Positions 5,237 through 58,791 of a stretch of DNA of 64,000 bases are shown piece after piece. Below the pieces are notes generated by a model. That model saw nothing but the letters and a program-made list of their open reading frames with translations. It was not told the DNA's origin and did not search any database. The stretch covers positions 2,395-66,394 of the forward strand of contig JAXMDT010000006.1 of NCBI GenBank assembly GCA_046348685.1, in the 5' to 3' direction. Origin of the DNA: Rickettsiales bacterium (GTDB lineage: Bacteria > Pseudomonadota > Alphaproteobacteria > Rickettsiales > UBA998). A program made the translations under genes and the position numbers. Position 1 is the first letter of the stretch, and every line of letters starts with the position of its first letter.

Positions 5237-5358
5237 CCTTCTCCCTCATTGAGGGAGAAGGTAGGATGAGGGTGAAAGGCGTAAGCCTTTTTGAATCAAA
5301 CCGCTTACCCTCACCCGCTCGCAATGCTCGCACCCTTTCCCGCAATGCAGGAGAGGGT
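5237..5358. repeat. family A ('GEG-type') palindromic MITE-like element, ORF-less copy
   Basis: The left arm is ccttctccctcattgagggagaaggtaggatgagggtgaa. The right arm is ...ccctcaccc...accctttcccgcaatgcaggagagggt, in inverted orientation. The arm design matches the copies at 29682-29775 and 56989-57417. Confidence 0.7.
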
Positions 5359-5369
5359 TTTATTTGTCG

Positions 5370-5801
5370 CTATGCCTTCCTAAGTTTCTCCTGGAATTCC
5401 CGCGCGAGCTGATCGGCCCGTTCGTTCATGGGATTTCCATCATGGCCTTTCACCCAGTGCCAGCGCATTGTATGGCGCTGGGTGGCGGCCAGCAAACGCT
5501 CCCATAAATCGACGTTTTTCACTTTGCCTTTTTTCCAGTCGCTTTTGATCCAGCCGTGAATCCATTCGGTGATGCCGCGGCGAACATATTCGCTATCGGT
5601 ATAAAGATCGATCTCGCACGGCTCTTTCAAGCTTTCCAGCGCCATGATCGCCGCCATCAATTCCATGCGGTTGTTGGTGGTGGATTCCTCGCCGCCGCAT
5701 AAATCCTTTTCATGCTTGCCATAAATCAGCACCGCGCCCCAACCGCCGGGGCCAGGATTTCCGGAGCAGGCGCCGTCCGTGTAGATGGTGACGTGTTTCA
5801 T
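5370..5801 (-). CDS. rnhA: ribonuclease HI
   Basis: Motifs [20 protein letters not shown]...[11 protein letters not shown]...DSEYV...W.WVKGH.G...NERADQLA are present and the length is 143 aa. Confidence 0.95.
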
Positions 5802-5875
5802 AGTCGATAGTTGGTAGTCGTTAGTCGCTGGTGGAGCAATTATTTTATCGACTAACGACTAGGGACTATAGACTA
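5801..5875. repeat. family D ('TAGTCG') hairpin element exactly filling the thrB-rnhA spacer
   Basis: The arms are tagtcgatagttggtagtcgttagtcg (5801-5827) and cgactaacgactagggactatagacta (5849-5875). They match 23/27 as an inverted repeat. The terminal CTA is the thrB stop codon. Confidence 0.75.
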
Positions 5876-6835
5876 TAGTCCATACTCCCCCACACTTTTC
5901 ACGCGCTGGTGGAACTGCAATTTCTTCACATATTCCATCGGATTTTTGGGGGTGACGATGGCATTCGGGTCGTGGAAGACCATGTCGTGCGCCCGTGTCA
6001 GCAGGAAGCGCAGCGACGCGCCGCGTGCGAGCAGGGGCATGGCATCCATTTCCGCTTTGGTGAGGGGCTTTACCTGGTTATAGGCAGAGAGCAGCAATCC
6101 TGCTTTCGTGACGTTAAATTGCCCATGTTCGAAGCACCAGGCATTCATCGTGATGATAAGGTCGTAGATATAAAAATCCGTACAGGCGAAATAGAAATCG
6201 ATGAAGCCGGAGAGCGTACCATCACGATAGAACACGTTATCGGGAAATAGGTCGGCGTGGATCACCCCGCGCGGCAGATCGGTATCTTTCGGCCAATGCG
6301 CTTCGAGGTAGGCAAGTTCGTCCGCAATCATCGCTGCAAGCCCCGGCTGAATGTCATCCGCCCTGTTGCCGATTTTTTCAGTGAGCGTGTGCCAGCCTGA
6401 GACCGAAAGATCGTTGACGCGCGTGCCGGAAAATCCCTCCGATGTCAGATGCATCTTTGCCATCATCGCGCCAAGCGGTCGCATATGTTCGTTGCGAATC
6501 GCGGCCGGGCTTTTGCCTTCCAAAAACGTAACGATCGCCGCCTTCTTTTCGCCCAGCGCATAGGTGCTTTCGCCCGATGTCGTATGCAGCGGCAGCGGGC
6601 AGGGGATGCCATGTTCCGCGAGATGCTCCATGATGCCGAGGAAGAAGGGGATATCCTCCAGCCTCACGCGTTTTTCATAGATAGTTAAGATATATTTCGT
6701 TTCGCCGGTGGCGATCAGATAGTTGCTGTTTTCCACCCCTTCGGCGATGGCTTTTTTGTGCACAATTTTTCCCAGCGCATAGCTGTCAGCAATGCGCTGG
6801 ATATCGTCGTCGGTCAGGTGCGTGTAAACGGCCAT
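5873..6835 (-). CDS. thrB: homoserine kinase (type II, APH-fold ThrB)
   Basis: MAVYTHLTDDDI...GVENSNYLI...HADLFPDNVF...IDFYFAC is typical of the alphaproteobacterial ThrB family. The length is 320 aa. Confidence 0.85.
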   Translation of the reverse strand: MAVYTHLTDDDIQRIADSYALGKIVHKKAIAEGVENSNYLIATGETKYILTIYEKRVRLEDIPFFLGIMEHLAEHGIPCPLPLHTTSGESTYALGEKKAAIVTFLEGKSPAAIRNEHMRPLGAMMAKMHLTSEGFSGTRVNDLSVSGWHTLTEKIGNRADDIQPGLAAMIADELAYLEAHWPKDTDLPRGVIHADLFPDNVFYRDGTLSGFIDFYFACTDFYIYDLIITMNAWCFEHGQFNVTKAGLLLSAYNQVKPLTKAEMDAMPLLARGASLRFLLTRAHDMVFHDPNAIVTPKNPMEYVKKLQFHQRVKSVGEYGL

Positions 6836-6974
6836 GCACGACCCTTATGGGATTCGTGCATTTTTGTCACGCCTGATTCGCGTTCCAAAATCGGTTGACG
6901 CATGATATAATTGCGATTAAGCACAATAGATAACCCATAAAAAACGGTTCCCCGGCCAGCAAAGGAGAACACGC

Positions 6975-7613
6975 ATGTTTCGCCGCAAAGAAGATCTGCT
7001 TAACCCCGAAGAATACGATGCCGCCATCGATACAGGAGAAAAATCTATGTCCACCGCCACTGCACCCGCTCAACCCGCCGCCGCTAATACGAATGCCGCT
7101 CCCGCTGCATCGACGCCGGCAACCGCTCCGTCACCGTCCGCACCGGTAGGTCGCGCGCCGATGGCGCCCGCTACCCCGGCATTCCGTCCGCAAGGCGCGG
7201 GTATGGCGAAGCCGGGTGAAAACCGTGCATCCGCGCCGAGCGCGATTGCGAGCGGCAAGGGCAGCAAGCGTATACTGACGGTCGGTAACGACATCACCCT
7301 GAACGGTGAAATTGCCAGCTGCGATCGTATTGTGATCGAGGGCCGCGTCGATGCGATCCTGAAAGAAGTTCACACCGTGGAAATCGCCGAGAGCGGTTCC
7401 TTCAAAGGCAAAGCCGAAATCGAAGATGCAGAAATTTCCGGCGTGTTCGATGGCGAGCTCGTTGTGCGCAACCGCCTGACAATTTACTCCACCGGCAAAG
7501 TCCGCGGCAAAATCGCGTACGGTGAAATCGAGATCGAGCGCGGCGGTGAAATCACCGGCGAGATCGTCCACGGAGCAGCCGCCAGCGGTGCGAAGAAATC
7601 CGCTGCGGCATAA
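6975..7613 (+). CDS. bactofilin-family cytoskeletal protein
   Basis: An Ala/Pro-rich N-terminal tail precedes a bactofilin beta-helix core (ITLNGEIASCDRIVIEGRVDA...FKGKAEIEDAEISGVFDGELVV...GKVRGKIAYGEIEIERGGEITGEI). The start could instead be the internal ATG (MSTATAP). Confidence 0.85.
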   Translation: MFRRKEDLLNPEEYDAAIDTGEKSMSTATAPAQPAAANTNAAPAASTPATAPSPSAPVGRAPMAPATPAFRPQGAGMAKPGENRASAPSAIASGKGSKRILTVGNDITLNGEIASCDRIVIEGRVDAILKEVHTVEIAESGSFKGKAEIEDAEISGVFDGELVVRNRLTIYSTGKVRGKIAYGEIEIERGGEITGEIVHGAAASGAKKSAAA

Positions 7614-7620
7614 CTGACTT

Positions 7621-7672
7621 TGTCATCCCGGCCCCGTTCTTCAACGGGATAAACTCCGGCCGGGATCCACGT
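7621..7672. repeat. family C hairpin element (GTCATCCCGGC...GCCGGGATCCACG type)
   Basis: The sequence is tgtcatcccggccccgttcttcaacgggataaactccggccgggatccacg. It has the same termini as the copies at 24651, 58346 and 58764. Confidence 0.7.
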
Positions 7673-7681
7673 CTTATAAAT

Positions 7682-7716
7682 AAAAAAGGGAGCCAAACCT
7701 GGCTCCCTTTTTGTTT
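7682..7716. terminator. bidirectional rho-independent terminator
   Basis: An 8-bp stem gggagcca/tggctccc with loop aacc is flanked by an A-run and a T-run. It lies between convergent genes that end at 7613 and 7728. Confidence 0.75.
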
Positions 7717-7727
7717 TAGTATAAGAA

Positions 7728-8390: not shown

Positions 8391-8698
8391 AATTTCCCCC
8401 TAAAATTAATACTAAATTAGTTATACTTAATGTTTGTGACGGTATGATGACGGGATTGAAAATATTTAAACATATGAAGTAATTCCATAATATTGGAATT
8501 ATGGTATTTGCGAATAGTCCCTTCCGGGAGATAATTTACTCATTATCATGAATTCTGACGTTGTTCCTGTCGCTCGCCCGGGCAGCAATGGATTTGGCAC
8601 GGCGTCAATGCAGCGTGAGGTCTCACCTGATCTCGCGCTGCCTGCCTTAACACGGCAGGTGGCGTGGGATAAATTTTTGAACGTTCCTATAAAACCAT

Positions 8699-8718
8699 AT
8701 CCCGCATTATTGCGGGAT
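8699..8718 (-). terminator. putative terminator hairpin downstream of ppdK
   Basis: The palindrome atcccgca-ttat-tgcgggat is followed on the minus strand by ..GGTTTTAT. Confidence 0.45.
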
Positions 8719-8773
8719 CGCTAGACCCCGCAACGAGTGCGGCGCACGTCTGAATCTTAGGTTCAGGCCATTT

Positions 8774-11467: not shown

Positions 11468-11503
11468 GGGTCCCTCTCCAAGGTTGATTGTATTTTCTTG
11501 TTT

Positions 11504-13567
11504 TTATACGTCCGCTATCAACCCGAAATTGGCGATACTGTCAAGTAATCCACGCACTTCCGAGAGCAATTTCAAACGGTTTTCGCGTATTTTTTTATCC
11601 TCGGCATTAACCATTACGCCCACAAAAAACGCATCCACCGCAGGGCGCAGCGCCGCAACCCGTTGCATGACCTGAATATAATCTTCGTTTTTGAGTGAAG
11701 CGGCAATATCGCTGCGGGTTTTTTCGAGTTCCGTATGCAGGGTTTTTTCCGCTGGCTCTGTCAGCAGGCTGCTATCGACCTTGCCAACATATTGCGTTTT
11801 ATCTTTTTTCTCTTCTTTCTCGACGATGTTTACCGCGCGGCGGTAGCCCGCGAGCAGGTTTTTGCCGTCTTCCGTACCGATGAAGGACTGGATGGCGTTG
11901 GCACGGGCGATAAGGCGCACCAGATCGTCTTCCTTGCCGCCGTCAAAGATCGCCTCGATCAGGTCATGGCGCACACCTTCGGTTTTTAAAATCACCTTCA
12001 GGCGGTCGGAGAAGAAGGCAAGGAGTTCTTCAACCAATGCATCAGGCTTTGCTTGTTTGGCAAATGACGTGAGCGCAGTCTTTAGCATTTCACGCAGCGA
12101 CAGGCGCAGCTTATTATCCAGAATGATACGAATGATACCAAGCGCCGAACGGCGGAGCGCAAAGGGATCTTTCGAGCCGGTGGGTTTTTCGCCCGCCGCA
12201 AAAAGTCCGCACAGGCTATCGAGTTTGTCGGCCAGCGCGACTGTGATCGCCAGCTTACTTTGCGGCAGCGCATCTTCCGCGCCTTGCGGTTTATAATGAT
12301 CGCGAATCGCGTCGGCGATATCAGTGGGAAGTTTCTGTTCAAGCGCATAGTAGCGGCCCATGACGCCTTGCAATTCCGGGAACTCGCCGACCATGCCGGT
12401 GACTAAATCCGCTTTGCAGAGCGATGCTACTTGCTCCGCTTTTTTCGAATCAGCGCCGGTGATTTTGCTGAGCGATGCGCTGAGCGCGGTGATACGCTTT
12501 ACCTTCTCGCCCATGCTGCCGAGCTTGGCGTGGAACAGCATGTCATCAAGGCCCTTGTTCCACTCGCCAAGCGGTTTTTTCTTATCCTGCTCCCAGTAGA
12601 ATTTTCCATCTTCAAGGCGGGCACGGACGACGCGTTCATTGCCGGCGATGATCTTATTGCCATCGTCGCGGGCAATCATGTTGGCGGTGATGAGAAAGCG
12701 GTTGGAGAGCGAGCCGTCCTTGTTCAGGAGCGCAAAATATTTCTGGTGGTGGCGCATTTCCAGAATGGGCACTTCCGGCGGCAGCGCCAGAAATTCCTTA
12801 TCGAACGTTCCGACCAGCATGACCGGCCATTCGACGAGTCCGGTCACTTCATTCAGCAATCCTTCATCTTCTTTCAGCACAAGGCCGTGTTCATTCGCAA
12901 TGTGATTTGCTTCTTTCGCGATCCAGGCTTTGCGTTCTTCGGCGCTCGCAATCACGGACGCATGTTTCAACGCTTCGACGTACTCATTCGGATGCTTGAT
13001 GGTAATAGTTTCCTTCGAGAGGAAACGGTGGCCGCGTGTGGTATTGCCGGAGGTGACATGGCCGATAGTGAGCGGTACGACATCATGATCGAACAAGCAG
13101 ATGATGGAGCGTAGCGGGCGCACCCAGCTCATTGGAGTGGCTCCCCAGCGCATGGATTTCGGCCAGGGGAAATCTTTGAGCGCGTTTTCGATGAGGCTGG
13201 TCAGCGCTTCTTTGGTCGGCTGGCCTTTTTGCTCAATCACCGCGAAATAGACCTGCTGGCCTTTGATGTCGCGCTTTTCTAATTGATCAACCGAAAGTCC
13301 GGCCGATTTGCAAAAGCCTTCGATGGCCTGCGCCGGTGCTGAAACGTTCGGGCCTTTCTTCTCAACCGTCAGGTCAGGCTGCGCCGCGGGTACATCATGC
13401 GCGATAATGGCGAGACGGCGCGGCGTGACAAAACTTTCGATTTTAGACGGCTTTAAACGCGCATCTTCCAATGCCTTGCTAATACGCGACTGCAATTCGC
13501 CAATCGCCGCTGCCTGCATACGGGCAGGAATTTCTTCGGAGAATAATTCGAGGAGGAGGCTAGGCAT
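11504..13567 (-). CDS. glyS: glycine--tRNA ligase beta subunit
   Basis: I moved the start to ATG 13567 ([18 protein letters not shown], the canonical GlyS N-terminus). The 17 upstream codons in the ORF track (..[12 protein letters not shown]) are read-through of a family B repeat arm. Confidence 0.9.
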   Translation of the reverse strand: MPSLLLELFSEEIPARMQAAAIGELQSRISKALEDARLKPSKIESFVTPRRLAIIAHDVPAAQPDLTVEKKGPNVSAPAQAIEGFCKSAGLSVDQLEKRDIKGQQVYFAVIEQKGQPTKEALTSLIENALKDFPWPKSMRWGATPMSWVRPLRSIICLFDHDVVPLTIGHVTSGNTTRGHRFLSKETITIKHPNEYVEALKHASVIASAEERKAWIAKEANHIANEHGLVLKEDEGLLNEVTGLVEWPVMLVGTFDKEFLALPPEVPILEMRHHQKYFALLNKDGSLSNRFLITANMIARDDGNKIIAGNERVVRARLEDGKFYWEQDKKKPLGEWNKGLDDMLFHAKLGSMGEKVKRITALSASLSKITGADSKKAEQVASLCKADLVTGMVGEFPELQGVMGRYYALEQKLPTDIADAIRDHYKPQGAEDALPQSKLAITVALADKLDSLCGLFAAGEKPTGSKDPFALRRSALGIIRIILDNKLRLSLREMLKTALTSFAKQAKPDALVEELLAFFSDRLKVILKTEGVRHDLIEAIFDGGKEDDLVRLIARANAIQSFIGTEDGKNLLAGYRRAVNIVEKEEKKDKTQYVGKVDSSLLTEPAEKTLHTELEKTRSDIAASLKNEDYIQVMQRVAALRPAVDAFFVGVMVNAEDKKIRENRLKLLSEVRGLLDSIANFGLIADV

Positions 13568-13949
13568 CAACAGGTTCCAGGTTTCGGGTTTCAGGTTCCA
13601 GAGAGCGTAACAGTCCATTTAGCATGCGGCTAATCTCTGCTGTTTTATGAGTGAGTTCTTCCAATTTTTCACGAGATAAAAATTGAAGATCACAGGCTAA
13701 AATCAGTTGAGTTTCTAATTCAGCTAGAGAACCGGTGGCCACCCTTAGATGATATGTAAACTCTTTTTTAGATGAGCGGCATCTCCCTTCCGCAATATTG
13801 GATGGAATAGAAATAGCTGCTCGCTGAATCTGCTGAGTAAGTGCATATATTTCTGTTTTAGGAAAGTCCTGGGTAGCCAAATATACTTCTTTCACAAGTA
13901 ATCTGGATTTTTTCCATACATCTAAATCCTGATACGAAAGAATGGTCAT
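13560..13949 (-). CDS. four-helix-bundle protein (23S rRNA intervening-sequence protein / Avd-like family)
   Basis: [18 protein letters not shown]...[16 protein letters not shown]...[17 protein letters not shown] is characteristic of this family. The C-terminal [14 protein letters not shown] is encoded by the repeat arm. The ORF overlaps the panD stop (ATGA) and the glyS start. Confidence 0.85.
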
Positions 13950-13990
13950 TTTTTCTTTCCCTGGAACCCGGCACCTGAAACCCGAGACCT
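13571..13990. mobile_element. family B ('PETRN') element carrying a four-helix-bundle ORF
   Basis: The inverted arms are caggttccaggtttcgggtttcaggttccag (13571-13601) and ctggaacccggcacctgaaacccgagacct (13961-13990). They bracket ORF 13560-13949. Confidence 0.7.
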
Positions 13991-14331: not shown

Positions 14332-15279
14332 TTAGCTTCCAGCTGCCAGGTTTCGGGTTTCGGAAGGTATCGTGTTAGGCTCTTTTTCCTGGAACCCGGA
14401 ACCTGGAACCCGAATTCCATCTAACCAAGCAGAACAACACCCTTTAGCCAGCGCGCGCACGCGTCCTATATAAGCCGCACGCTCGGTGACGCCGATAGCG
14501 CCGCGCGAATCGAGCAGGTTGAAGAGATGGCTCGCCTTCAGGCAGTAATCATAGGCGGGCAGCGCCATGCCGCCAATATCGAGCAGGCGCGCGCATTCTT
14601 TTTCCACGTCGTTAAAATGGCGGAACAGCATTTCCGTGTTGGCATGCTCCAGATTGAAGCCGGAGAATTCCACCTCGTTGCGTTTGAAGACATCGCCGTA
14701 GGTTTTCTGCGGATAGCCTTCGGGCGGGTTATTCCATTTGAGATCGTAGACGTTATCGACGCCCTGGATATACATAGCGAGGCGCTCGATGCCGTATGTC
14801 AATTCACCAGAAACGGGGCTGCATTCAAAGCCGCCCACTTGTTGAAAATACGTGAATTGCGTTACTTCCATGCCGTCGCACCAGACTTCCCAGCCAAGCC
14901 CCCACGCGCCGAGCGTCGGGCTTTCCCAGTCATCCTCAACGAAGCGTATATCATGTTCATGCGGGTCGATGCCGAGTTCGACGAGGCTGCCGAGATACAA
15001 ATCCTGAATGTTGTCCGGGGAGGGTTTCAGGATCACCTGAAACTGGTAGTAATGCTGCAAGCGGTTCGGATTCTCACCATATCGGCCATCTTTTGGACGG
15101 CGGGATGGCTGCACATAGGCCACATTCCATGTTTCGGGGCCGAGGGTGCGCAGCGTCGTTGCGGTGTGGAAGGTGCCGGCCCCGACTTCCATATCATAGG
15201 GCTGCAAAATAACGCAGCCGCGATCTCCCCAATAGCGCTGGAGGGTTAAGATAATGTCCTGGAAGCTTTTAACCGTCAT
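14332..15279 (-). CDS. glyQ: glycine--tRNA ligase alpha subunit
   Basis: [12 protein letters not shown]...[19 protein letters not shown] is present. The ~25-aa C-terminal extension (..[25 protein letters not shown]) is encoded by a family B repeat. Confidence 0.95.
14346..14415. repeat. family B hairpin element inside the 3' end of glyQ
   Basis: The sequence is ccaggtttcgggtttcgga...tcctggaacccggaacctggaacccgaa. Confidence 0.7.
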
Positions 15280-23629: not shown

Positions 23630-23630
23630 C

Positions 23631-23717
23631 GTCATCCTGAGCGTAGCGAAGGATCTAGATTCTTCGCCTTCGGCTCAGAATGACAATAACTGGATTCCAG
23701 CTTTCGCTGGAATGACG
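23631..23717. repeat. two family C hairpins between etfB and etfA
   Basis: They are gtcatcctgagcgtagcgaaggatctagattcttcgccttcggctcagaatgaca (23631-23685) and ctggattccagctttcgctggaatgacg (23690-23717, the 'WIPAFAGMT' unit). Confidence 0.8.
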
Positions 23718-24650: not shown

Positions 24651-24678
24651 CGTGGATCCCGGCCTTCGCCGGGATGAC
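24651..24678. repeat. family C hairpin (CGTGGATCCCGGCCTTCGCCGGGATGAC)
   Basis: The unit is near-identical to the copy at 58764-58791. Confidence 0.8.
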
Positions 24679-24698
24679 CACATCAATTAAAAAATTTA

Positions 24699-25611: not shown

Positions 25612-27255
25612 ATGATGCAACTATACCTTTCACAGATAAATCCTATTGTGGGCGACCTCAAGGGAAACCATGAAAAACTTTGCTCTGCGTGGAAAAAAGC
25701 AAAGGAAATGGGCGCTGATCTCATTGTTTTTCCGGAGCTTGCCATTACAGGTTATCCACCCGAAGACCTGGTGCTAATGCCATCTTTCCAGCAGGCGGCG
25801 ATGCAGGCAGTCGAAAAGCTGGCCAACGAAACGGTGGATGGCCCTGCCATCATTACCGGCGGAATCTGGCACGACGGCACACAGCTTTATAATTCCGCGT
25901 TTCTGATTGAAGAAGGGAATATCGCCCGCATCCAGTTCAAGCATCATCTGCCGAATTATGGCGTATTTGACGAAAAACGCGTCTTTGCCTGCGGCCCGCT
26001 GCCGGAGGTTGTCGAATGGAGAGGAATCAGAATCGGCCTGCTCGTCTGCGAAGACATGTGGGGCGATGAATCGGTTGCGCACGTGGCGAAACAAAATCCG
26101 GATGTGCTGATTTCCATTAATGCTTCCCCCTATGAACGCGGTAAAATGAGCGCGCGAGAAGAGGTGGCGCGCGATGCGGTATCCACCTGCCGTGCGCCGC
26201 TGTTTTATGTGAATACGGTCGGCGGGCAGGATGAAATCGTCTTTGACGGCCGTTCATTTGTGATGGATGCATCCGGTGAGGTATGCGGCAAGTTCAAGGC
26301 ATTCGAAGAGCAGGTTTCGGGTTTCGGGTTTCAGGTTTCGGGAAAAGAAATTGAATTACTCTCCCCTGACAGCTGGAACCTGGAACCTAAAGCGTTAGAG
26401 CTGCTCTACCTCGCCATGATGACCGGCGTGCGGGATTACGTGGAAAAAAATAATTTTCCCGGCGTGGTGATCGGGCTGTCGGGGGGAATCGATTCGGCAT
26501 TGACGGCGTGTGTGGCGGTGGATGCGCTCGGGCCGGAGCGGGTGCATTGCGTAATGATGCCCTCGAAGTATACCTCCGATATCAGTGTCGTCGATGCGAC
26601 TAAACTTGCCACCGAACTTGGCGTGACCTACAACATCGTCACCATCGCGCAAGGCATGGAAGCGGTGGAGGGTATGCTGGCCGGTATACGCGATCAGCTG
26701 ACCTCGCTGGCGATGGAAAATATCCAGCCGCGGATTCGCGGATTGCTGTTGATGGCGATCAGCAATTCCACCGGTAAAATCCTGCTGACGACCGGTAATA
26801 AATCCGAAATGGCGACCGGTTATGCCACGCTTTACGGGGATATGTGCGGTGCATTCAATGTATTGAAAGACCTTTATAAAATGGAAGTCTATGCGCTCTC
26901 CGAATGGCGCAATATGTCGATGCCGCAAGGTGCGAAAGGGCCGGAAGGTGCGGTGATTCCAGAGAGGATTATATCCCGCCCGCCCAGCGCCGAACTGAAG
27001 CCGGACCAAACTGATCAGGATACACTGCCGCCCTATGCGACACTCGATGCGATCCTGAAAGGGCTGGTGGAGGAACGCTTGTCTGTAGAGGATCTGACCG
27101 CGCGCGGATTTGAAAAAACGATGATCGAACAGGTGGCTGGCATGCTGTTTCGCTCGGAATATAAACGCCGGCAAGCCCCGCCGGGGGTCAAACTCTCCTC
27201 GATGAGCTTTGGCCGCGATCGGAGATACCCGCTGACCAACGGGTTTAAACTCTAA
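25612..27255 (+). CDS. nadE: glutamine-dependent NAD+ synthetase
   Basis: An N-terminal CN-hydrolase domain (FPELAITGYPPEDL...LVCEDMW) is followed by a C-terminal synthetase domain (GLSGGIDSAL). The two are separated by a 26-codon repeat insertion. Confidence 0.95.
   Translation: MMQLYLSQINPIVGDLKGNHEKLCSAWKKAKEMGADLIVFPELAITGYPPEDLVLMPSFQQAAMQAVEKLANETVDGPAIITGGIWHDGTQLYNSAFLIEEGNIARIQFKHHLPNYGVFDEKRVFACGPLPEVVEWRGIRIGLLVCEDMWGDESVAHVAKQNPDVLISINASPYERGKMSAREEVARDAVSTCRAPLFYVNTVGGQDEIVFDGRSFVMDASGEVCGKFKAFEEQVSGFGFQVSGKEIELLSPDSWNLEPKALELLYLAMMTGVRDYVEKNNFPGVVIGLSGGIDSALTACVAVDALGPERVHCVMMPSKYTSDISVVDATKLATELGVTYNIVTIAQGMEAVEGMLAGIRDQLTSLAMENIQPRIRGLLLMAISNSTGKILLTTGNKSEMATGYATLYGDMCGAFNVLKDLYKMEVYALSEWRNMSMPQGAKGPEGAVIPERIISRPPSAELKPDQTDQDTLPPYATLDAILKGLVEERLSVEDLTARGFEKTMIEQVAGMLFRSEYKRRQAPPGVKLSSMSFGRDRRYPLTNGFKL
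26311..26388. repeat. family B hairpin element inserted in frame in nadE
   Basis: The sequence caggtttcgggtttcgggtttcaggtttcggg...agctggaacctggaacct is 78 bp (26 codons) and encodes QVSGFGFQVSGKEIELLSPDSWNLEP. Confidence 0.8.
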
Positions 27256-27258: not shown

Positions 27259-27393
27259 GTCATACCGGCCTTCGCCGGTGCGATATTATCTCAGTAACGA
27301 AGTTTTGTTGTAATTCCCGCTCCTGGCCTTTATATCGTCATCCTGAGCGCTGCGAAGGATCTGGAGATTCTTCGCCTACGGCTCAGAATGACA
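27259..27393. repeat. family C hairpins in the gltX leader
   Basis: They are gtcataccggccttcgccggtgcgat (27259-27284) and gtcatcctgagcgctgcgaaggatctggagattcttcgcctacggctcagaatgaca (27337-27393). Confidence 0.75.
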
Positions 27394-28747: not shown

Positions 28748-28840
28748 GAATTCCAGATTGCGATGCCTTCGGCATCTTGTCTGGAATGACAATTATAAAA
28801 TGTTAGTGTATGCGTCATTCCAGCGAAAGCTGGAATCCAG
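28748..28840. repeat. family C hairpins upstream of GIY-YIG gene 1
   Basis: They are gaattccagattgcgatgccttcggcatcttgtctggaatgac (28748-28790) and cgtcattccagcgaaagctggaatccag (28813-28840). Confidence 0.8.
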
Positions 28841-28849
28841 GTCTTAATC

Positions 28850-29137
28850 ATGCAGCAGTCATATGTTTATATCATGGCTAGCAAGCGAAATGGGACGCTT
28901 TATATCGGCGTTACATCCAATCTTACTCAGCGAGTCTATCAGCATAAAGAAGGTTTGGCTGATGGCTTCACCAAAAAGTATAATATCAAACTGCTGGTTT
29001 ATTATGAAATTCACGAAGAAATAGAGCAAGCTATCCTCCGGGAGACACAGATGAAGGCATGGCAGCGAAAATGGAAGCTGGAATTGATAGAAAAGTTCAA
29101 TCCGGACTGGAAAGATTTATATGAAACCATTATTTAG
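28850..29137 (+). CDS. GIY-YIG nuclease family protein (UPF0213/COG2827-like)
   Basis: YVYIMASKRNGTLYIGVTSNLTQRVYQHKEG...KLLVYYE...A..RE.Q.K.W.R.WK is present. The ORF is 95 aa. Confidence 0.9.
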   Translation: MQQSYVYIMASKRNGTLYIGVTSNLTQRVYQHKEGLADGFTKKYNIKLLVYYEIHEEIEQAILRETQMKAWQRKWKLELIEKFNPDWKDLYETII

Positions 29138-29220
29138 TCTGGATTCCAGCTTTCGCCGCCGCCACGGTGGCTGGAATGACGACCTAACTCTACTGGATTC
29201 CAGCTTTCGCTGGAATGACG
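29138..29220. repeat. family C hairpins downstream of GIY-YIG gene 1
   Basis: tctggattccagctttcgccgccgccacggtggctggaatgacg (29138-29181) and ctggattccagctttcgctggaatgacg (29192-29220) are inverted relative to 28813-28840. Confidence 0.8.
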
Positions 29221-29227: not shown

Positions 29228-30802
29228 ATGACCATCTCCCTCTATAACACGCTCACCCGCCAGAAAGACGCCCTTGTTCCTGAGAATGAGAAGAATGTCC
29301 GCATGTATGTGTGCGGGCCGACGGTGTATGACCGGGCGCATCTGGGTAATGCGCGCTCGGTGGTGGTGTATGATGTGCTCTACCGGCTGCTGCGGCATGT
29401 GTACGGCGAAAAGCAGGTTACCTATGTGCGCAACATCACCGATGTCGATGACAAGATCAACAAGGCCGCCGTTGAGCGCGGCATCACGATTCAACAGCTG
29501 ACGCAGGAAGTCACCGGCTGGTTCCATGCCGATATGGAAGCGCTGAATTGCTTAGAGTTGCCGGAAAAAAATCAGCCGCGTGCAACACAGTATATTAAAC
29601 AAATGATCAAGATGATCGAAAGCCTGATTGCGAATGGCAATGCTTACGTGGCCGAAGGGCATGTTTTGTTTGATGTAAACACCTCCCCCAGTAGGGGGGA
29701 GGATGGGAGGGGGGCGTTGGATGCTCAGAGTTCCCAAAGCCCCCACCCTAACCTTTCCCCTACTGGGGTGGGAAATTGGTATTATGGCATGCTTTCGGGA
29801 CGTTCGCTGGATGATCTGATTGCCGGGGCGCGGGTGGAAGTTGCGCCGTACAAGAAAAGTCCCGGTGATTTTGTGCTGTGGAAACCCGCAGCGGCGACCG
29901 ACGATGCATCGAGCAAATTTGAATCCCCCTGGGGAGTAGGGCGTCCCGGCTGGCATATCGAATGCTCGGCGATGGCGACGGAACTTCTCGGCGATACTTT
30001 CGATATACATGGCGGCGGCGCGGATTTGATGTTCCCGCACCATGAGAACGAAATCGCGCAGGCCTGCGCCGCCAATCCCGGATCACGCTTCGCGAAGATG
30101 TGGGTGCATAACGGATTCCTCACCGTGCATGGCGAGAAGATGAGCAAATCGCTCGGCAATTTCATCACCGTGCGCGATTTGCTGGATAAGGGCGTGCATG
30201 GCGAAGTGATCCGCTTCGCGCTGCTCTCAACGCATTACCGCAAACCGCTCGACTGGACGGACAAGCTGGTTGAAGAAGCTTTTTTTGATCTCAAGTATTT
30301 TGCTCAATATCTATGGCAGAATCAGGGTTTTAAATTTGATAAATTTGAAAAAGAATGGAAAACATTTTCACGCGAACCTGAAGCACAAATTTATCTTTCA
30401 AGATTTTACGAGAGCTTAGAAAGCGATCTCAACTTTAGTGTTGCAAAAACTGTTATTTACGATGTTATTGATGAAATTAAAAAACATGTTTTTAATTTAG
30501 AAGATAAAGAAGACAATCAAGAAAATGAAAAAAACTATTTCATTTATCGTTCAACATTACGGGAAATGTGTGAATTTCTGGGATTATGTACTGTCAACTT
30601 TGTTGAGTGGCAAAAGCAGGAAGAAGCCAACAAAAATAGCGGTAGCGATGTAGAAGCGATTCAAAATCGCATCGGAGCGCGGAAAGCAGCTAAGCTTGCC
30701 AAGAACTGGGCGGAGGCAGACCGCATACGCGATGAACTAAAAGCCGAGGGCATCCTGCTCGAAGACAAGCCGGGTGATGTGACGGAGTGGAGAAGGCTTT
30801 AA
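29228..30802 (+). CDS. cysS: cysteine--tRNA ligase
   Basis: [18 protein letters not shown] contains the HIGH motif and KMSKSLGN is present. At 524 aa it is longer than usual because of a ~30-codon repeat insertion. It contains a strongly AT-rich internal segment. Confidence 0.95.
29682..29775. repeat. family A ('GEG-type') MITE-like element in frame in cysS
   Basis: cctcccccagtaggggggaggatgggagggggg...cccccaccctaacctttcccctactggggtgggaaa encodes [31 protein letters not shown], between FDV and YGMLSG. Confidence 0.75.
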
Positions 30803-32371: not shown

Positions 32372-32420
32372 ACTGGATTCCAGCTGTAGTTTATCCCGGC
32401 GAAGGCCGGGACGGGAACGA
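32372..32420. repeat. family C composite hairpin
   Basis: The sequence is actggattccagctgtagtttatcccggcgaaggccgggacgggaacga. Confidence 0.6.
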
Positions 32421-34224: not shown

Positions 34225-34998
34225 ATGCTTTTTTTGATTCCACTTGCTGCTGAAGGAATCGCCGCCTTGTTTGGCGGCGGCGCGGCTGCGGCTGCCGGTA
34301 CGGCGGCGGTCGTGGGAACGGAAGCGGCCATCGGAACGGCAGCTGCCGTTGGCACCGCTGCCGTGGCAACCGAAGCGGCCGCTGTAGCAGCAGGTACGAC
34401 GGCTGCCGTCGGCGGCACGGCGGCAAGCGCCGGATTGCTGGCAAGCGTGGGGCTTTGGGGTAGCCGCTTGATTGCGCCGGCACGGTGGGCATTTAGTGCC
34501 TTGCGTTCGGGCGGATTAGTCCGCGGTGGAAAGATTGGATTGGAAGCAGCTGAAAAAGTTGCAACGAGCGGTGGCGCGCGAACCGCACTGACAAAAGTCG
34601 GATTAGCAGGCGGTGGCGCGGCGCTCGGCGCGACGGGCGCTACAGCGACATGGGCGGCATCGACTGCGATTACTCTGTCAATTTTTGCGGGGATCGCCCT
34701 TGCCGTTGCCATTGGCGGATTTGCGCTTTACCGCGCGTTTGCCAGCCCAAGTGACGTCTCGGAAAGCACAATGCGTGAAAAACCGCGGGATATTCCCCAG
34801 CCGGCGATGCAGGTGCCGCAGCAGCAGGTCATGATGCAGCCGCAGCAACAGCAACCCGTCATAATGATGCAGGCGCCGCAGCCGCAAGGCTACTGGGTGC
34901 AGCGCGTCGCCACACCGCAGATACAGCAGCAATCCTTCGCCGCTGCCGAAGACCAACGCCGCCAGCAGGCAGCCTTAGCGCAGAACGTTGTCCAATAA
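34225..34998 (+). CDS. Gly/Ala/Thr-rich membrane protein with a Q/P/M-rich C-terminal tail
   Basis: I prefer ATG 34225 (RBS AGGAAA) over GTG 34195. A low-complexity GTAAAVG-type region and TM helices are followed by the tail PQQQVMMQPQQQQPVIMMQAPQPQGYWVQ. Confidence 0.55.
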   Translation: MLFLIPLAAEGIAALFGGGAAAAAGTAAVVGTEAAIGTAAAVGTAAVATEAAAVAAGTTAAVGGTAASAGLLASVGLWGSRLIAPARWAFSALRSGGLVRGGKIGLEAAEKVATSGGARTALTKVGLAGGGAALGATGATATWAASTAITLSIFAGIALAVAIGGFALYRAFASPSDVSESTMREKPRDIPQPAMQVPQQQVMMQPQQQQPVIMMQAPQPQGYWVQRVATPQIQQQSFAAAEDQRRQQAALAQNVVQ

Positions 34999-35073
34999 GG
35001 TTTCAGCTTTCAGGTTTCAGGTTTTAGTATATTTATAAACCATGCTGACACCTGAAACCCGGCACCTGAATCC
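34999..35073. repeat. family B hairpin element spanning the methyltransferase start codon
   Basis: The sequence is ggtttcagctttcaggtttcaggtttt-agtatatttataaaccATGctgaca-cctgaaacccggcacctgaatcc. Confidence 0.75.
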
Positions 35074-35776
35074 CCCCACCGTCATTCTCGATCGCCCGCA
35101 GATGGGCGAAAACATCGGCGCGGTGGCGCGCGCGATGATGAATTTCGGCATGCGCGAATTGCGGCTGGTGAACCCGCGCGACGGCTGGCCGAATCCGAAG
35201 GCGCATGAGATGAGCGCCAATGCCGATGTGATCATCGAGGCGGCACGCGTATACGATACGTTTTCCTCGGCGCTTGCCGATTGCCATTTCGTGATTGCGG
35301 CGACCGCCCGAAAACGCGAATTGGAAATTCCGACTTACACGCCGCGCGAATCGGCTTCTCTGCTGCTCGAAAAAATGCGCGATGGCGAAAAGGTAGGCAT
35401 CGTGCTCGGCGGCGAGCGGGCGGGACTTGCCAATGAAGATATCGTTCACTGCCAGGCGATCTGCACGATCCCTACCGACCCTGCCAATGCCTCGCTGAAT
35501 ATCGCACAGAGCATGGTGATTTTAGGCTATGAATGGTGGATGGCCACTCTGCAGGACGCAGAGCATAGCGGCCCGGAGATGGCCCATGCCACCAACGGCG
35601 AGCGGCAGGCGCTCTACGAGCACCTCGTCTGGGCGCTCGATAATAGCCAGTATTTCCAACACGAGGGCAGGGCGCTCGTCATGCAGCGCAACCTTCGTTC
35701 CATGCTGGCGCGGCTTCCTCTAACATCCCAGCAAATACAGTCGCTTAGGGGCATGATTCGGGCGCTGATGTCTTAA
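35042..35776 (+). CDS. TrmH/SpoU-family RNA methyltransferase (TrmJ/LasT-like, group 1)
   Basis: VILDRPQMGENIGAVARAMMNFGMRELRLVNPR...VLGGERAGLANED...IPTDPANASLNIAQSM is present. The first ~10 codons (MLTPETRHLNP) come from the repeat. Confidence 0.8.
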   Translation: MLTPETRHLNPPTVILDRPQMGENIGAVARAMMNFGMRELRLVNPRDGWPNPKAHEMSANADVIIEAARVYDTFSSALADCHFVIAATARKRELEIPTYTPRESASLLLEKMRDGEKVGIVLGGERAGLANEDIVHCQAICTIPTDPANASLNIAQSMVILGYEWWMATLQDAEHSGPEMAHATNGERQALYEHLVWALDNSQYFQHEGRALVMQRNLRSMLARLPLTSQQIQSLRGMIRALMS

Positions 35777-36818: not shown

Positions 36819-38282
36819 ATGGCACGTTGGTGGAATAAGACGAAAAAGGCTGTAGGAAACGCTACGATTGGCGAGCAGGCACGTTATAACCGGCTAAACG
36901 CTGCTGTGGGCGCAACAGAAGACGAGCTGAGCAGACTTGAGACTGGGACCGGGGGTACAAGGGGTCTCCTCGACCTCGAGCATGAGCATGAGGAAGCTGT
37001 TGCTAAACATGCTGAAGCGGCAGCCGCGCATGCAGAAGCAAAAGACGCATTTACCCCAATTGATATTCAGCAGAAAAAACTACAAGCGGAAGTTACAGGT
37101 GCGAAAACGCGCCTTGAGGCACTTCAAAAAGCTCATGAAGCTGCAGAAAAGGCCCATGCCGATCATCAAGCGAAAATTAGCGATATTGAAAGCCGTGTCG
37201 GTTCGGCTTCGGTTGAAGACCTTGCGCAAGCTAGGCAAGATGCCGAAATTGCCCGTGCTCAGGCACGTCACCCACTTAAAAAACTCGAGACTACGTTGCC
37301 TGGTGGAAGTACAGGTAATATTGATGAGTACTTTAAAAATGAACGGGAGAGATATAAAGAAGCCAAGCGTAAAATTAAATCCGCTTTAGGCACGCCTCGT
37401 GAAGAGACTGCAATAAAAGAGTTTAATGAAGCAAGAGCAAATCTTGTTGAAGCCCGAAAGATTCGACGTGGTACTGAAGAATACAGGGTATGGAGCGCAG
37501 CTAACAACGAGTACCTTGCAGCAGAAGCACTGCATGAGGAAGCAAAAGCCCTTGGCGGACTCCGAGCGAAATCAGATGGATTGAAAAAAGCAGCTGATCA
37601 AGCAGAAGCAAAACTCACAGGGAGTCCTGATCATGTGAAGCTTAAGGAAGCAGAAGCGGCATTGGAGACTCACACAACGGAAGTACATACACCTGCTGCA
37701 AACAGGTTGGCATTAGCAAAAGAGGCAGTTGAAGGCGGATCCGTTACAGGCACTCGCGAAGCAATGAAAAACGCTGAGCATGCACTTAAATCGACAACCC
37801 GCCGCCAGGAATTACTGGAAGGCCGACTTGAGCGCCAAACAAAACGCTTGGAGCAGGTCGGCGAAAAATGGCGGATCGGCAAGTCTGGTAAGATTGTGAC
37901 GGGTCCAATGAAATTTGCTGGAAAAACGTTGAAATGGGGTGGTCTTGGTGTGTTGGCAGCCGGCGCTGGCGCTTTGGCTTACAATGCGCTAAAGCCTTCA
38001 AATCGCGGTTCTGATGAGGCGCTGCAAGGTCTGAAAGACCAGATCGCCGAAAATGAAGCGAAGCTGACGGCGATTCAGACGATGCAGCCGCAGCAGCCGG
38101 TGATGCAGCAGCCGATCATGGTTGCCGCGACGCCGCAAGGCCCGGTCGCAACGCAATATCCGCCCGTAATGATGGTTCCGGCGAACAGCAATGTTCCAGC
38201 AACCTCGATTACCAGCGCCGGCCTGCAGTACCAGGGTCAGCTGATAGCGAATCAAGGCCAGATGATGGGAGCGCCTGCGTAG
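36819..38282 (+). CDS. coiled-coil protein with a C-terminal TM anchor and Q/P/M-rich tail
   Basis: This 487-aa ORF starts 9 nt after the previous stop. Long heptad-like Ala/Glu/Lys helices are followed by TM WGGLGVLAAGAGALAYNAL. The tail is MQPQQPVMQQPIMVAATPQG...LQYQGQLIANQGQ. Confidence 0.6.
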   Translation: MARWWNKTKKAVGNATIGEQARYNRLNAAVGATEDELSRLETGTGGTRGLLDLEHEHEEAVAKHAEAAAAHAEAKDAFTPIDIQQKKLQAEVTGAKTRLEALQKAHEAAEKAHADHQAKISDIESRVGSASVEDLAQARQDAEIARAQARHPLKKLETTLPGGSTGNIDEYFKNERERYKEAKRKIKSALGTPREETAIKEFNEARANLVEARKIRRGTEEYRVWSAANNEYLAAEALHEEAKALGGLRAKSDGLKKAADQAEAKLTGSPDHVKLKEAEAALETHTTEVHTPAANRLALAKEAVEGGSVTGTREAMKNAEHALKSTTRRQELLEGRLERQTKRLEQVGEKWRIGKSGKIVTGPMKFAGKTLKWGGLGVLAAGAGALAYNALKPSNRGSDEALQGLKDQIAENEAKLTAIQTMQPQQPVMQQPIMVAATPQGPVATQYPPVMMVPANSNVPATSITSAGLQYQGQLIANQGQMMGAPA

Positions 38283-38292
38283 GCTTCATCCC

Positions 38293-38347
38293 CAGCTTTC
38301 AGGTTTCAGGTTAATCGGGTTCAGCATGCTGAACCCGATTTTCTTTT
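38293..38347 (+). terminator. repeat-derived rho-independent terminator
   Basis: A family B half-arm cagctttcaggtttcaggtt is followed by the hairpin aatcgggttcagc/gctgaacccgatt and TTCTTTT. Confidence 0.7.
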
Positions 38348-55175: not shown

Positions 55176-57497
<2,322 letters not shown>

Positions 57498-57502
57498 AAC
57501 TG

Positions 57503-57620
57503 TGCGCCTTTCATTTTTTCCGTATGCGTCGTTATCCTTCGGTCTCGCAATGCTCACGTAGCGCTGCTACGCTGCGCTCACTCACCTCGGCTGCCTCGCC
57601 TACGAAAATCTGAAAGACGC
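57503..57620. repeat. family E long imperfect palindrome after thiC
   Basis: The arms are gcgcctttcattttttccgtatgcg... and ...cgcctacgaaaatctgaaagacgc. The core is tgctcacgtagcgctgctacgctgcgctca. Confidence 0.55.
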
Positions 57621-57624
57621 TTAT

Positions 57625-58293
57625 ATGGCTAACTATATTGTTCATTCGGAAATACAGGATTTCAAAAAAGTTAGAGAAACTGATCCATTTCAATTAGAGC
57701 TGAAAAAAGATCCATTAAAACAGGCAATCACTTTATTGCAGCTTGCGGATAACGACTATCTATCAGCAAGAATATTATTATTAAACGGCCTATGGCAAAC
57801 TGGAATACCTAAAGCAAATGAAGTGATAGAAAAAGTTTTAAAGGCAATTCTTATTTTGAGAGCTGTAGAGTTAGACCAGCTTGAAAAGCTAAGCCTAAAA
57901 TCCTATTACCACGACACGCCTAAATTATTTGAGGAATTAAAAAAATATTTGAATATTAAGGAAGGGGATTTTCAAAGAGAAAATAGTATCCTTAGTAATT
58001 ACTATCTATGTTATGAGCGCAGATATGAAAATTGGCTCTCGCATGGCATTACTTGTATGGATGCGTCAGTAAATTCAACCGATAGAATATATACTTTTTT
58101 AAGGAATTTTTTTGTTTCCAAAATTCCTGATTCTTTAAGAGAAGAAGCGAAAGTATTTGGCTTTTATCTATCTCCGCTTAACTCCTATGAAAAGAATCAC
58201 CCAGAGCGAAGAAAAATAAATAATTTAAAAGAACAAAATGCGGTCTTTTCTGCCTTGGAGATCAATCAAGAAAAATTAGAAAAATTATTATAG
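57625..58293 (+). CDS. hypothetical AT-rich protein, possibly HEPN-like
   Basis: This 222-aa ORF is very AT-rich. The N-terminal helices AITLLQLADNDYLSARILLLNG...ANEVIEKVLKAIL resemble HEPN. A candidate R-x6-H lies in ERRYENWLSH. The assignment is weak. Confidence 0.35.
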   Translation: MANYIVHSEIQDFKKVRETDPFQLELKKDPLKQAITLLQLADNDYLSARILLLNGLWQTGIPKANEVIEKVLKAILILRAVELDQLEKLSLKSYYHDTPKLFEELKKYLNIKEGDFQRENSILSNYYLCYERRYENWLSHGITCMDASVNSTDRIYTFLRNFFVSKIPDSLREEAKVFGFYLSPLNSYEKNHPERRKINNLKEQNAVFSALEINQEKLEKLL

Positions 58294-58345
58294 TTCATGG
58301 ATCTAATCCTTTTCCTCCATTTCCTCATTTGGCTTGCGGTTAGAG

Positions 58346-58433
58346 GTCATCCCGGCGAAGGCCGGGATCCACGAATTACTTTTTCCTCGACGCTTATATA
58401 ATAAGACGTAGACCCGGCCTACGCCGGGGTGAC
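58346..58433. repeat. family C hairpins upstream of GIY-YIG gene 2
   Basis: They are gtcatcccggcgaaggccgggatccacg (58346-58373) and cgtagacccggcctacgccggggtgac (58407-58433). Confidence 0.8.
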
Positions 58434-58477
58434 ATTAGTAGTTGTGCTGAAGGCTTTATAACGTAATTAGATAAACT

Positions 58478-58762
58478 ATGCCTTACTGGGTTTACATCGT
58501 CACCAATAAGCCGAATGGCATTCTGTATATTGGGGTGACGAATGATATTGCACGGCGAAGTTATGAGCATCGTGAAGGGCTCATTGAAGGCTTTACGAAA
58601 AAATATGGTCTGAAAATGCTTGTTTATGCAGAAGAATATGCCACGATTGAAGAAGCGATTCATCGTGAGAAGTGCATGAAAGAATGGAAGCGTGCATGGA
58701 AAATCAGGCGTATTTTAGAGGCAAATCCTGATTGGCATGACTTATTTGAAATCTTAGTGTAA
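58478..58762 (+). CDS. GIY-YIG nuclease family protein (second copy)
   Basis: YWVYIVTNKPNGILYIGVTNDIARRSYEHREG...KMLVYAE...REK.MKEWKRAWK is present. The ORF is 94 aa and is a clear paralogue of 28850-29137. Confidence 0.9.
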   Translation: MPYWVYIVTNKPNGILYIGVTNDIARRSYEHREGLIEGFTKKYGLKMLVYAEEYATIEEAIHREKCMKEWKRAWKIRRILEANPDWHDLFEILV

Positions 58763-58763
58763 A

Positions 58764-58791
58764 CGTGGATCCCGGCCTTCGCCGGGATGAC
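58764..58791. repeat. family C hairpin immediately after GIY-YIG gene 2
   Basis: cgtggatcccggccttcgccgggatgac starts 2 nt after the stop codon. Confidence 0.8.

Follow-up and report, generated by a model that had tools for sequence, protein, structure and literature searches.

In Neisseria meningitidis the 94-amino-acid nuclease SsnA binds the hairpin of the NTS repeat (consensus CGTCATTCCCGCGMAVGCGGGAATCYRG) only as single-stranded DNA (ssDNA), with a Kd of about 4.5 nM, and cuts a few nt upstream of it; the enzyme is inactive on double-stranded DNA or RNA and reduces transformation by NTS-containing DNA (Chenal et al., Nat Commun 2025, PMC11893778). The NTS extends the dRS3 repeat and has been generalized as the Ssn-related motif (SRM); SRMs occur on both sides of 42% of Ssn homologues, and Chenal et al. 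have likened the NTS-ssnA-NTS layout to insertion sequence (IS) elements and to REP/RAYT (PMC11893778). Triplex motifs (TMs) form intrastrand triplexes in vitro and are known from E. coli as TMECO sequences (e.g. CCCTCGCCCCTTTGGGGAGAGGGTTAGGGTGAGGGG), the loci of which show raised variability; no mobility functions were found near TMECOs, and DUF559 is never mentioned in their description (Holder et al., NAR 2015, PMC4666352). The PF05635 protein S23p is known from the intervening sequence (IVS) in the 23S rRNA of Coxiella and Leptospira; in Coxiella tandem GACAGAT heptamers precede its open reading frame (ORF), the inverted-repeat stem is cut by RNase III and S23p itself seems to be untranslated and decaying (PMC4990558). 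Here we compare with these systems three repeat families found in a 64,000-nt stretch of contig JAXMDT010000006.1 from a Rickettsiales bacterium (assembly GCA_046348685.1; this whole stretch is referred to as the window), i.e. family A with triplex-motif arms and DUF559, family B with heptamer arms and a PF05635 four-helix-bundle protein, and family C with SRM hairpins and a GIY-YIG protein.

Three repeat classes, each with its own protein

That the window holds three palindromic repeat families, each with a cognate small ORF, had been proposed in a first-pass annotation of the sequence. This repeat/protein pattern is real and lies far above chance. All four of the proposed ORF-bearing elements were recovered, with inverted repeats and with profile matches to PF04480, PF05635 or PF01541:

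13560-13990, minus strand: family B element, with (GGTTTCR)n arms at 13571-13599 and 13956-13990 and a PF05635 ORF of 129 amino acids at 13560-13949
28813-29220, plus strand: family C element 1, with an SRM at 28813-28840, a GIY-YIG ORF at 28850-29137, a degenerate unit at 29139-29177 and an inverted SRM at 29193-29220
56988-57418, plus strand: family A element in thiC, with a left TM unit at 56988-57027, DUF559 at about 57042-57365 and an inverted right TM unit at 57379-57418
58345-58792, plus strand: family C element 2, with an SRM at 58345-58372, an extra unit at 58408-58434, a GIY-YIG ORF at 58478-58762 and an inverted SRM at 58765-58792 (complementary arms at 58346-58373 and 58764-58791)

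The 40-nt arms of the family A element are 85% complementary, the family B inverted repeat (13579-13599 and 13970-13990) is 90% complementary, and both family C arm pairs, 28 nt in length, are 100% complementary. The DUF559 domain in thiC (amino acids 622-729) matches PF04480 with E=1e-38 and 131.9 bits against a cut-off of 20.6, the family B ORF, encoding a four-helix bundle, matches PF05635 (E=4e-38) as well as TIGR02436, and the two GIY-YIG ORFs match PF01541 with E=2e-16 (element 1) and E=9e-16 (element 2).

The same pairings recur far beyond this contig. Our comparison set comprised 80 GIY-YIG loci from named genomes in more than 10 phyla (56-69% amino acid identity), 42 PF05635 loci and 92 DUF559 loci, i.e. 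about 215 loci in all. Flanking inverted repeats, counted at a score of at least 14 with shifted positions as controls, were present at 40 of 79 GIY-YIG loci (controls 1/423), at 25 of 41 loci for the PF05635 four-helix bundle (controls 0/212) and at 56 of 91 DUF559 loci (controls 1/350). Moreover, the class of the repeat goes with the protein: units of the GTCAT-hairpin class (CGTCAT-hairpin-ATCCAG) lie beside GIY-YIG in 52/74 loci and triplex-type units (CCCTCTCC…GGAGAGGG…GGGTGAGGG) beside DUF559 in 61/75 loci, whereas PF05635 arms vary in sequence from locus to locus and yet always consist of tandem short repeats. A first heptamer detector was too strict for these arms (8/41 PF05635 loci) and was replaced by arm autocorrelation, which detected a 7-nt period in 15 of 20 PF05635 arms versus none of 106 arms of the other two classes. 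In the resulting matrix of protein against repeat class, off-diagonal cells do not exceed 2 and controls amount to 0-1. Scanning with an SRM covariance model, built solely from arms beside GIY-YIG genes of other genomes, gave 281 matches in 314 kb of ssn loci and not a single one in the DUF559 and PF05635 loci (354 kb together), and triplex-motif units numbered 151 in DUF559 loci, 4 in ssn (GIY-YIG) loci and 0 in PF05635 loci. Overall, our data show that each of the three protein families has its own cognate repeat class, and the association proposed from a single window is thus found again in about 215 independent loci across phyla as a near-diagonal matrix.

As single strands the window features form stable folds (z-scores between -1.9 and -7.6), and the repeats match no curated RNA family, as neither Rfam families nor tRNA genes were found in the 64-kb window. 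The contig is of the metagenome type and the arms are G/C-rich and simple, which could raise the suspicion of chance, of low-complexity sequence or of an assembly artefact; however, the chance expectation for the family A and B patterns is near zero, and with the same architectures occurring in isolates, e.g. E. coli K-12, Deinococcus, Azospirillum and Sphingomonas, this explanation is refuted and retains practically no probability. The reading that we favour, and hold to be probable though by no means certain, is that of three independent modules following one logic, i.e. a small protein gene sits between inverted copies of the structured repeat on which the protein acts, with ORF-less copies scattered nearby.

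The parallel to REP elements and their RAYT proteins that had been drawn from the window is apt and had already been drawn by Chenal et al. (PMC11893778). As in REP/REPIN-RAYT and in IS200/IS605, a gene lies between inverted hairpin repeats, many ORF-less copies are dispersed, target-site duplications are absent and hairpins of ssDNA are the putative substrates. Unlike in RAYT and IS200/IS605, there is no HUH/Y1 transposase; the folds are GIY-YIG, a predicted Vsr-type PD-(D/E)XK and a four-helix bundle, and it is correct that none of the proteins is a known transposase, since Pfam and NCBIfam give only GIY-YIG, DUF559 and PF05635. The window elements also differ from classical IS elements and miniature inverted-repeat transposable elements in that no target-site duplication is evident at them. 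The further statement that these associations are functionally uncharacterized needs to be narrowed: the Ssn nuclease has been demonstrated (PMC11893778), the family B element corresponds to the S23p IVS (PMC4990558) and the family A repeat to the TM (PMC4666352), whereas the statement holds for the DUF559 link and for family B outside rRNA. Family C is, in other words, already explained by NTS/SRM-Ssn, family B is a known element in a new setting, and family A combines a known repeat with an apparently unrecognized nuclease partner. Only the DUF559 link and the occurrence of family B outside rRNA appear to be undescribed so far.

DUF559 and the triplex-motif repeats

Besides its DUF559-bearing copy, family A was expected to have two short copies in the window, and both were found:

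29682-29768, plus strand: copy in cysS, consisting of two inverted TM units in frame, with no ORF; TM regular expression match at 29682-29714
5236-5357, plus strand: intergenic copy, an inverted TM pair upstream of the 3' end of rnhA, with a 12-bp hairpin at 5236-5262; fold z=-5.5

The layout is that of a TM, i.e. a pyrimidine segment, a complementary purine segment and a purine third segment forming a mirror repeat, with short loops (CCCTCTCC-loop-GGAGAGGG-TYR-GGGTGAGGG), and the arms match the TMECO sequences in Table 1 of PMC4666352. A strict three-segment regular expression for this motif has two matches in the window (56989-57027 and 29682-29714), while 30 first-order Markov simulations of the window yielded none; assignment of the partner arms and of the 5236-5357 pair to the motif was made by eye. 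The cysS copy represents a net in-frame insertion of 28 amino acids relative to E. coli CysRS (1li5) and as ssDNA folds with -29.7 kcal/mol (z=-4.4), such computed folds of TM units covering the hairpin part of the motif. With TMECO (PMC4666352) these arms share the three segments, the occurrence singly or as inverted pairs and the local variability; in contrast to E. coli TMECO, which has been reported as always intergenic, they bracket DUF559 in a fixed orientation and lie within coding sequence.

This orientation is maintained among the sampled loci, where, of 84 units, 34 lie upstream in forward and 34 downstream in reverse orientation, versus 9 + 7 in other arrangements. The third TM segment covaries as a mirror of the second, to an extent reached in 0 of 500 permutations. 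DUF559 itself is intact as an ORF in 81/84 copies, and the residues E19, D48, E59, D61, H65, D74 and R77 are invariant in 84 sequences. Its relative of known structure is 3hrl (a strong match, E=7e-24), with a weak match to the homing endonuclease I-Bth0305I (3r3p), a PD-(D/E)XK enzyme to which it is a distant sequence relative; judged by these sequence relationships, DUF559 is a protein of the Vsr-type PD-(D/E)XK fold. TM-like units lie on both sides of DUF559 in Deinococcus aetherius, Neisseria gonorrhoeae, Synechocystis and Picosynechococcus and upstream only in Azospirillum brasilense; the Sinorhizobium locus has a different palindrome (CATCTCCCCC…GGGGGAGATG) that is not clearly a TM. In E. 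coli K-12 the 3' end of ycjD, which encodes a DUF559 protein, overlaps a TM-like hairpin, and a canonical TMECO follows about 170 nt downstream. At the same locus (L217, 5250-5480) the last approximately 40 nt of ycjD (GGAGACGGTGCTGGAGAATATTC…CTGAACCG) recur about 95 nt downstream, ahead of the TMECO, which suggests a remnant either of another DUF559 3' end or of a duplication at the arm. A search of the literature on DUF559, ycjD and TMECO, which was not exhaustive, found nothing linking DUF559 or ycjD to TM repeats, and the DUF559-TM pairing, sometimes in frame in essential genes, seems to be undescribed.

The element in thiC illustrates how far this residence in coding sequence can go. Its DUF559 has no start codon of its own and is an in-frame part of a ThiC ORF of 772 amino acids (55179-57497), which by comparison with its closest homologues, all of them free of the insert, has a net insertion of about 140 amino acids. 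The best named relatives of the window ThiC are from alphaproteobacterial metagenome-assembled genomes (MAGs); two contigs of ThiC relatives (P0005 and P0008) show no synteny with the window and serve as insert-free ThiC alleles only. Four insert-bearing ThiCs share one common linker site and form no clade among insert-free ThiCs, which means repeated gain or precise loss. Among all DUF559 copies about 16 of 85 lie within long open frames, and Pfam places the domain inside of, or fused to, ThiC, Mur ligase, YgiQ-type and SPASM radical-SAM proteins, a nucleotidyl transferase, MmeI/Eco57I-type methylases and EPSP synthase, while in two HrpA-type helicases it stands between DEAD and Helicase_C. 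The lack of any functional relationship among the hosts speaks for insertion and against designed domain fusion. An intein was considered for the ThiC insert and rejected, as neither ThiC-DUF559 nor ten other host-DUF559 fusions contain a Hint/intein family; without a Hint or splicing domain, the DUF559 insert would remain in the mature protein. Family A thereby resembles Rickettsia palindromic elements, inteins and homing endonucleases in being tolerated in frame in housekeeping proteins, and differs from the first in that the full element encodes a nuclease domain and from inteins in having no Hint or splicing domain.

The interval from thiC to the second Ssn element contains an ORF of 222 amino acids (57625-58293) that matches a HEPN domain weakly (E=1.4e-4).

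Heptamer-arm and SRM elements in the window and beyond

Family B, for which one ORF-bearing copy and several short copies had been claimed, is represented accordingly, with three short copies, a half copy and, in addition, a palindrome built of another heptamer:

14340-14417, minus strand: ORF-less copy at the glyQ/panD junction, encoding the last approximately 26 amino acids of GlyQ
26311-26387, plus strand: family B-derived sequence in nadE, in frame in the interdomain linker
34997-35073, plus strand: short copy at a SpoU-family methylase gene, its right arm providing the first approximately 11 codons of ORF 35042-35776
38286-38312 (to 38340), plus strand: half a family B arm and then an unrelated 12-bp hairpin, situated after ORF 36819-38282 and ahead of rpsD
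5800-5876 (to 5889), no strand assigned: ORF-less palindrome of another heptamer, (TAGTCGN)n, flanked by rnhA and an APH-family kinase gene

With at most 3 mismatches allowed, (GGTTTCR)2GGTT is matched 18 times at 5 window loci versus 0.12 expected. The palindrome at 5800-5889 (units TAGTCGA TAGTTGG TAGTCGT TAGTCG and their complement) has the best fold of all (-18 kcal/mol, z=-7.6) and has the appearance of another family of the PF05635 type, the ORF-bearing copy of which lies outside of the window. Of the housekeeping genes in which short copies had been said to lie in frame, thiC and cysS have net insertions as described above, glyQ and panD both end in arm-encoded C-terminal tails and the SpoU methylase has an N-terminus encoded by an arm, but nadE shows no net gain in length, a net insertion having been rejected because the length equals that of PDB 5kha.

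By its sequence, the family B element is an S23p-type intervening-sequence element outside rRNA. Like the 23S IVS (PMC4990558), it has a PF05635 ORF, long-stem inverted repeats and tandem heptamers (GACAGAT in Coxiella, GGTTTCR in the window). Unlike the IVS, which resides in helix 25 or 45, it is flanked by protein genes, and its short copies are found inside coding sequences or at their ends; the window contains no Rfam family, and 0/20 other PF05635 loci are in rRNA. G exceeds C on the coding strand of the upstream arm in 17/20 PF05635 loci. PF05635 proteins are Avd-like, and their structure PDB 2gsc is a five-chain assembly. The literature on PF05635/TIGR02436, in a search that was not exhaustive, yielded no report linking PF05635 to heptamer arms outside rRNA.

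The residence of the element in the glyQ-panD-glyS cluster can be followed in some detail. In the window it sits between panD and glyS. The true glyS start is the ATG at 13567, which overlaps the stop of the four-helix-bundle ORF (ATGCCTAG) and at which the conserved GlyS N-terminus begins; the mechanically called glyS ORF begins at 13618, within the arm. The closest homologues of the four-helix-bundle protein are orthologues in the same gene cluster, arranged as glyQ-4HB-panD(-glyS), with 4HB denoting the four-helix-bundle gene, in several metagenomic relatives and as panD-4HB-glyS, like in the window, in the closest one. The cluster junctions are full, ORF-less or empty depending on the genome: the glyQ/panD junction has an ORF-less copy in the window and the full element in relatives, and the panD/glyS junction, which is occupied in the window, is empty in locus L220. 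The ORF-less copy at 14340-14417 has 30 nt at 90% in common with the 5' untranslated region side of the full element and, in retaining this side, appears as a deletion derivative rather than as an empty target. In the closest relative (L223, 715-755) the glyQ/panD junction contains tandem GGCGAGA heptamers, unlike GGTTTCR, where the window has its ORF-less copy. For dispersal of family B, the remaining short copies in the window are the sole evidence. Exact-sequence look-ups of the window four-helix-bundle protein and of RpsD matched no record and did not lead to close relatives.

It is here that a role at the RNA level alone has to be considered, in which double-stranded RNA stems cut by RNase III or terminator-like hairpins shape operon expression and the ORFs are relics inactive on the repeats. 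RNase III does cut the Coxiella IVS stem, with S23p apparently untranslated and decaying there (PMC4990558), all elements fold stably, and family B copies are found at gene junctions of the glyQ-panD-glyS operon. We nevertheless regard this as improbable, for the window S23p-type ORF, unlike that of Coxiella, is intact and conserved, its product being as conserved as those of its housekeeping neighbours (62% versus 48-75% for GlyQ, PanD and GlyS). Likewise, the vast majority of the ORFs for DUF559 and Ssn are intact and their catalytic residues invariant, SsnA binds no RNA (PMC11893778), and cleavage of the in-frame copies in cysS and thiC would destroy these mRNAs.

By homology and layout, family C is the NTS/SRM-Ssn system, a module that is already known. 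The two window proteins (95 and 94 amino acids), with GIY-YIG as their sole Pfam domain above cut-off, resemble Ssn in length, in domain content and in the catalytic Tyr, Tyr and Glu, since Y7, Y18 and E65, which are invariant in 28 homologues, match Y6, Y17 and E64 of SsnA. Both genes lie between inverted, oriented hairpins that match the NTS consensus save for compensatory changes in the stem, with solitary copies nearby. Element 1 is directly upstream of cysS and is recognized by the SRM model with E=9e-11; element 2 has the stem variant ATCCCGGC/GCCGGGAT. Unlike Neisseria NTS-Ssn, the pairs described here are known from sequence, belong to an uncultured alphaproteobacterium-like host and coexist as two diverged pairs, with proteins 53% identical, stems ATTCCAGC and ATCCCGGC and own exact solitary copies for each. 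These and the other ORF-less units of family C are:

23630-23717, no strand assigned: ORF-less copies between etfB and etfA, namely a pair of variant arms (23630-23685) and, on the minus strand, one solitary canonical unit (23690-23717) that has the same sequence as the right arm of element 1
24652-24679, minus strand: solitary unit just after etfA, E=7e-9, identical to the right arm of element 2
27265-27390, no strand assigned: weak or variant units between nadE and gltX, with a partial unit at 27265-27278 and an arm pair GTCATCCTGAGCG…GAAGGATCT at 27336-27390; E 0.09-1.7, weak alone
32393-32412, plus strand: partial hairpin upstream of the leuA-like gene, E=0.0016

The SRM model finds six units at E<=7e-9 in the window (the four element arms and the solitary units at 23690-23717 and 24652-24679), two moderate units (58408-58434 and 32393-32412, E about 1e-3) and about five weak variants (the 23630-23685 pair, 27265-27278, 27336-27364 and 29139-29177, E 0.05-1.7). 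The two GIY-YIG-bearing copies originally counted stand; the original figure of ten or more short copies is reached only by counting weak variants. The arm pairs at 23631-23684 and 27337-27390 constitute a distinct hairpin type (GTCATCCTGAGCG-N4-GAAGGATCT plus partner) with weak SRM scores and may represent a third Ssn/SRM specificity, its gene being located outside of the window.

Ssn elements have sharp ends (GTCAT…ATGAC) and a median length of 370 bp. A target duplication, sought as a direct repeat of at least 2 nt, was absent in 39/40 of them and none is evident at the window elements; from the reported cut position we infer that Ssn would cut just outside of, or at, the observed element boundary. 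In an alignment pre-filtered for pairing, the SRM stem covaries, with 5 of 8 pairs changing on both sides, and divergence of the Ssn protein correlates weakly with that of the stem (r=0.21, p=0.012). Some ssn genes (loci L026, L056, L045 and L067) are accompanied by arrays of 10-30 SRM units in alternating orientation and at a regular spacing of about 110-160 nt; these loci come from a Thermodesulfobacteriota MAG, Shewanella litoralis, a Phycisphaerales MAG and a Dehalococcoidia MAG, and the arrays resemble the Neisseria NIME.

The solitary units and ORF-less arm pairs could also be taken to mean that the repeats are autonomous host elements, such as REP-like terminators, mRNA stabilizers or recombination sites, and that the ORFs are passengers with a preference for landing in the middle of palindromic pairs already present, and are irrelevant to the spread of the repeats. 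For such landing there is precedent in some IS elements and in the Neisseria Nf phages that target REP or dRS3; arm pairs with just 3 nt between the arms (23631-23684 and 27337-27390) are possible empty sites, many short copies directly follow stop codons in a terminator-like manner, and no mobility genes were found near E. coli TMECOs (PMC4666352). We consider this unlikely, however, since arm class and protein travel together in more than 10 phyla with the other classes absent, arm stems covary with the protein, the affinity of Ssn for its hairpin is nanomolar (PMC11893778), and the copy at 14340-14417, retaining part of the 5' untranslated region of the full element, is a deletion derivative.

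As to the surroundings of the elements, the neighbouring genes were confirmed as glyS, panD, glyQ, etfB, etfA, nadE, gltX, cysS, leuA-like, a SpoU methylase gene, rpsD and thiC. A low-GC island follows cysS (window 30000-32000, 41% versus about 53%) and includes an ORF for a TIR-domain protein (30787-31698), which may be a horizontally acquired, defence-type gene. Very large minus-strand ORFs are located at 61130-63990 and 750-4448, one of them with at least 5 tandem repeats of 321-324 nt (64-76% identity); the repeat-bearing ORF looks like one for a repetitive surface or adhesin-type protein.

Mechanism, mobility and wider meaning

If the three families are indeed modules of one logic, each protein would act on its own folded single-stranded repeat, as has been shown for Ssn and as we infer for DUF559 and PF05635. 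By homology and architecture, the window Ssn proteins would bind CGTCAT-hairpin-ATCCAG as ssDNA only and cut a few nt 5' of it. DUF559 would recognize the folded single-stranded TM and nick beside it, making DUF559 plus TM a putative IS-like or homing-like unit; its arms can be read as stop-free linkers rich in Gly, Glu, Ser and Pro, so that the unit may survive in frame within essential genes. Family B arms as RNA would form a long stem to be cut by RNase III, as in the Coxiella 23S IVS, with a pentameric PF05635 protein probably binding the heptamer array. Short copies would in part be deletion derivatives that persist as dispersed targets. A gene between its own targets may thus represent a minimal selfish unit, which could become a long-term or domesticated resident.

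Several observations weigh against this reading. Approximately one third to one half of the homologues have no detectable flanking inverted repeat, and for DUF559 and PF05635 the role on the repeats is deduced from association only. The demonstrated role of Ssn in Neisseria is restriction of transforming ssDNA and not transposition (PMC11893778), and the 99% pairing in the SRM hairpin alignment is in part a product of how it was built, because sequences had been pre-filtered for pairing. Lacking a nuclease motif, the four-helix-bundle protein cannot itself cut DNA. Furthermore, the window family B element is orthologous and syntenic in relatives in which GlyQ is only 64-75% identical, which argues for long vertical residence and not for recent mobility; the synteny and junction patterns portray this copy as an old, maintained resident that has been locally rearranged. 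Polymorphism of insertion sites, which the first-pass annotation had proposed to look for, is evident from ThiC with and without insert, from DUF559 in unrelated hosts and from the variable glyQ-panD-glyS junctions, but a precise pair of empty and filled sites between close strains was obtained for none of the three families.

Going beyond the modules as such, we would tentatively put forward, as a possibility that we do not rate as high, that DUF559 is a second, convergent family of repeat-guided ssDNA nucleases (Vsr fold, TM site). This would explain the origin and instability of TM/TMECO sequences, with mobile units settling unspliced and in frame, as in ThiC, CysRS, HrpA and Mur ligases, and PF05635 would form a third such pair with its heptamer arms, the rRNA IVS being no more than the best-known insertion site.

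Should DUF559 and PF05635 act on their own repeats, Ssn would be one case of a broader principle realized with at least three unrelated folds. Two large orphan families would gain a function, i.e. DUF559, which includes E. coli YcjD, and PF05635, misnamed 'S23 ribosomal' or 'IVS', and new candidate sequence- or structure-specific ssDNA nucleases would be added to the Ssn toolbox. The origin of the conserved bacterial triplex repeats and the instability of the loci around them would also be explained. It is easy to mistake in-frame, unspliced nuclease inserts, such as those of ThiC, CysRS, helicases and Mur ligases, for functional domain fusions, and these inserts bear on the question of how large an insertion a protein can tolerate.

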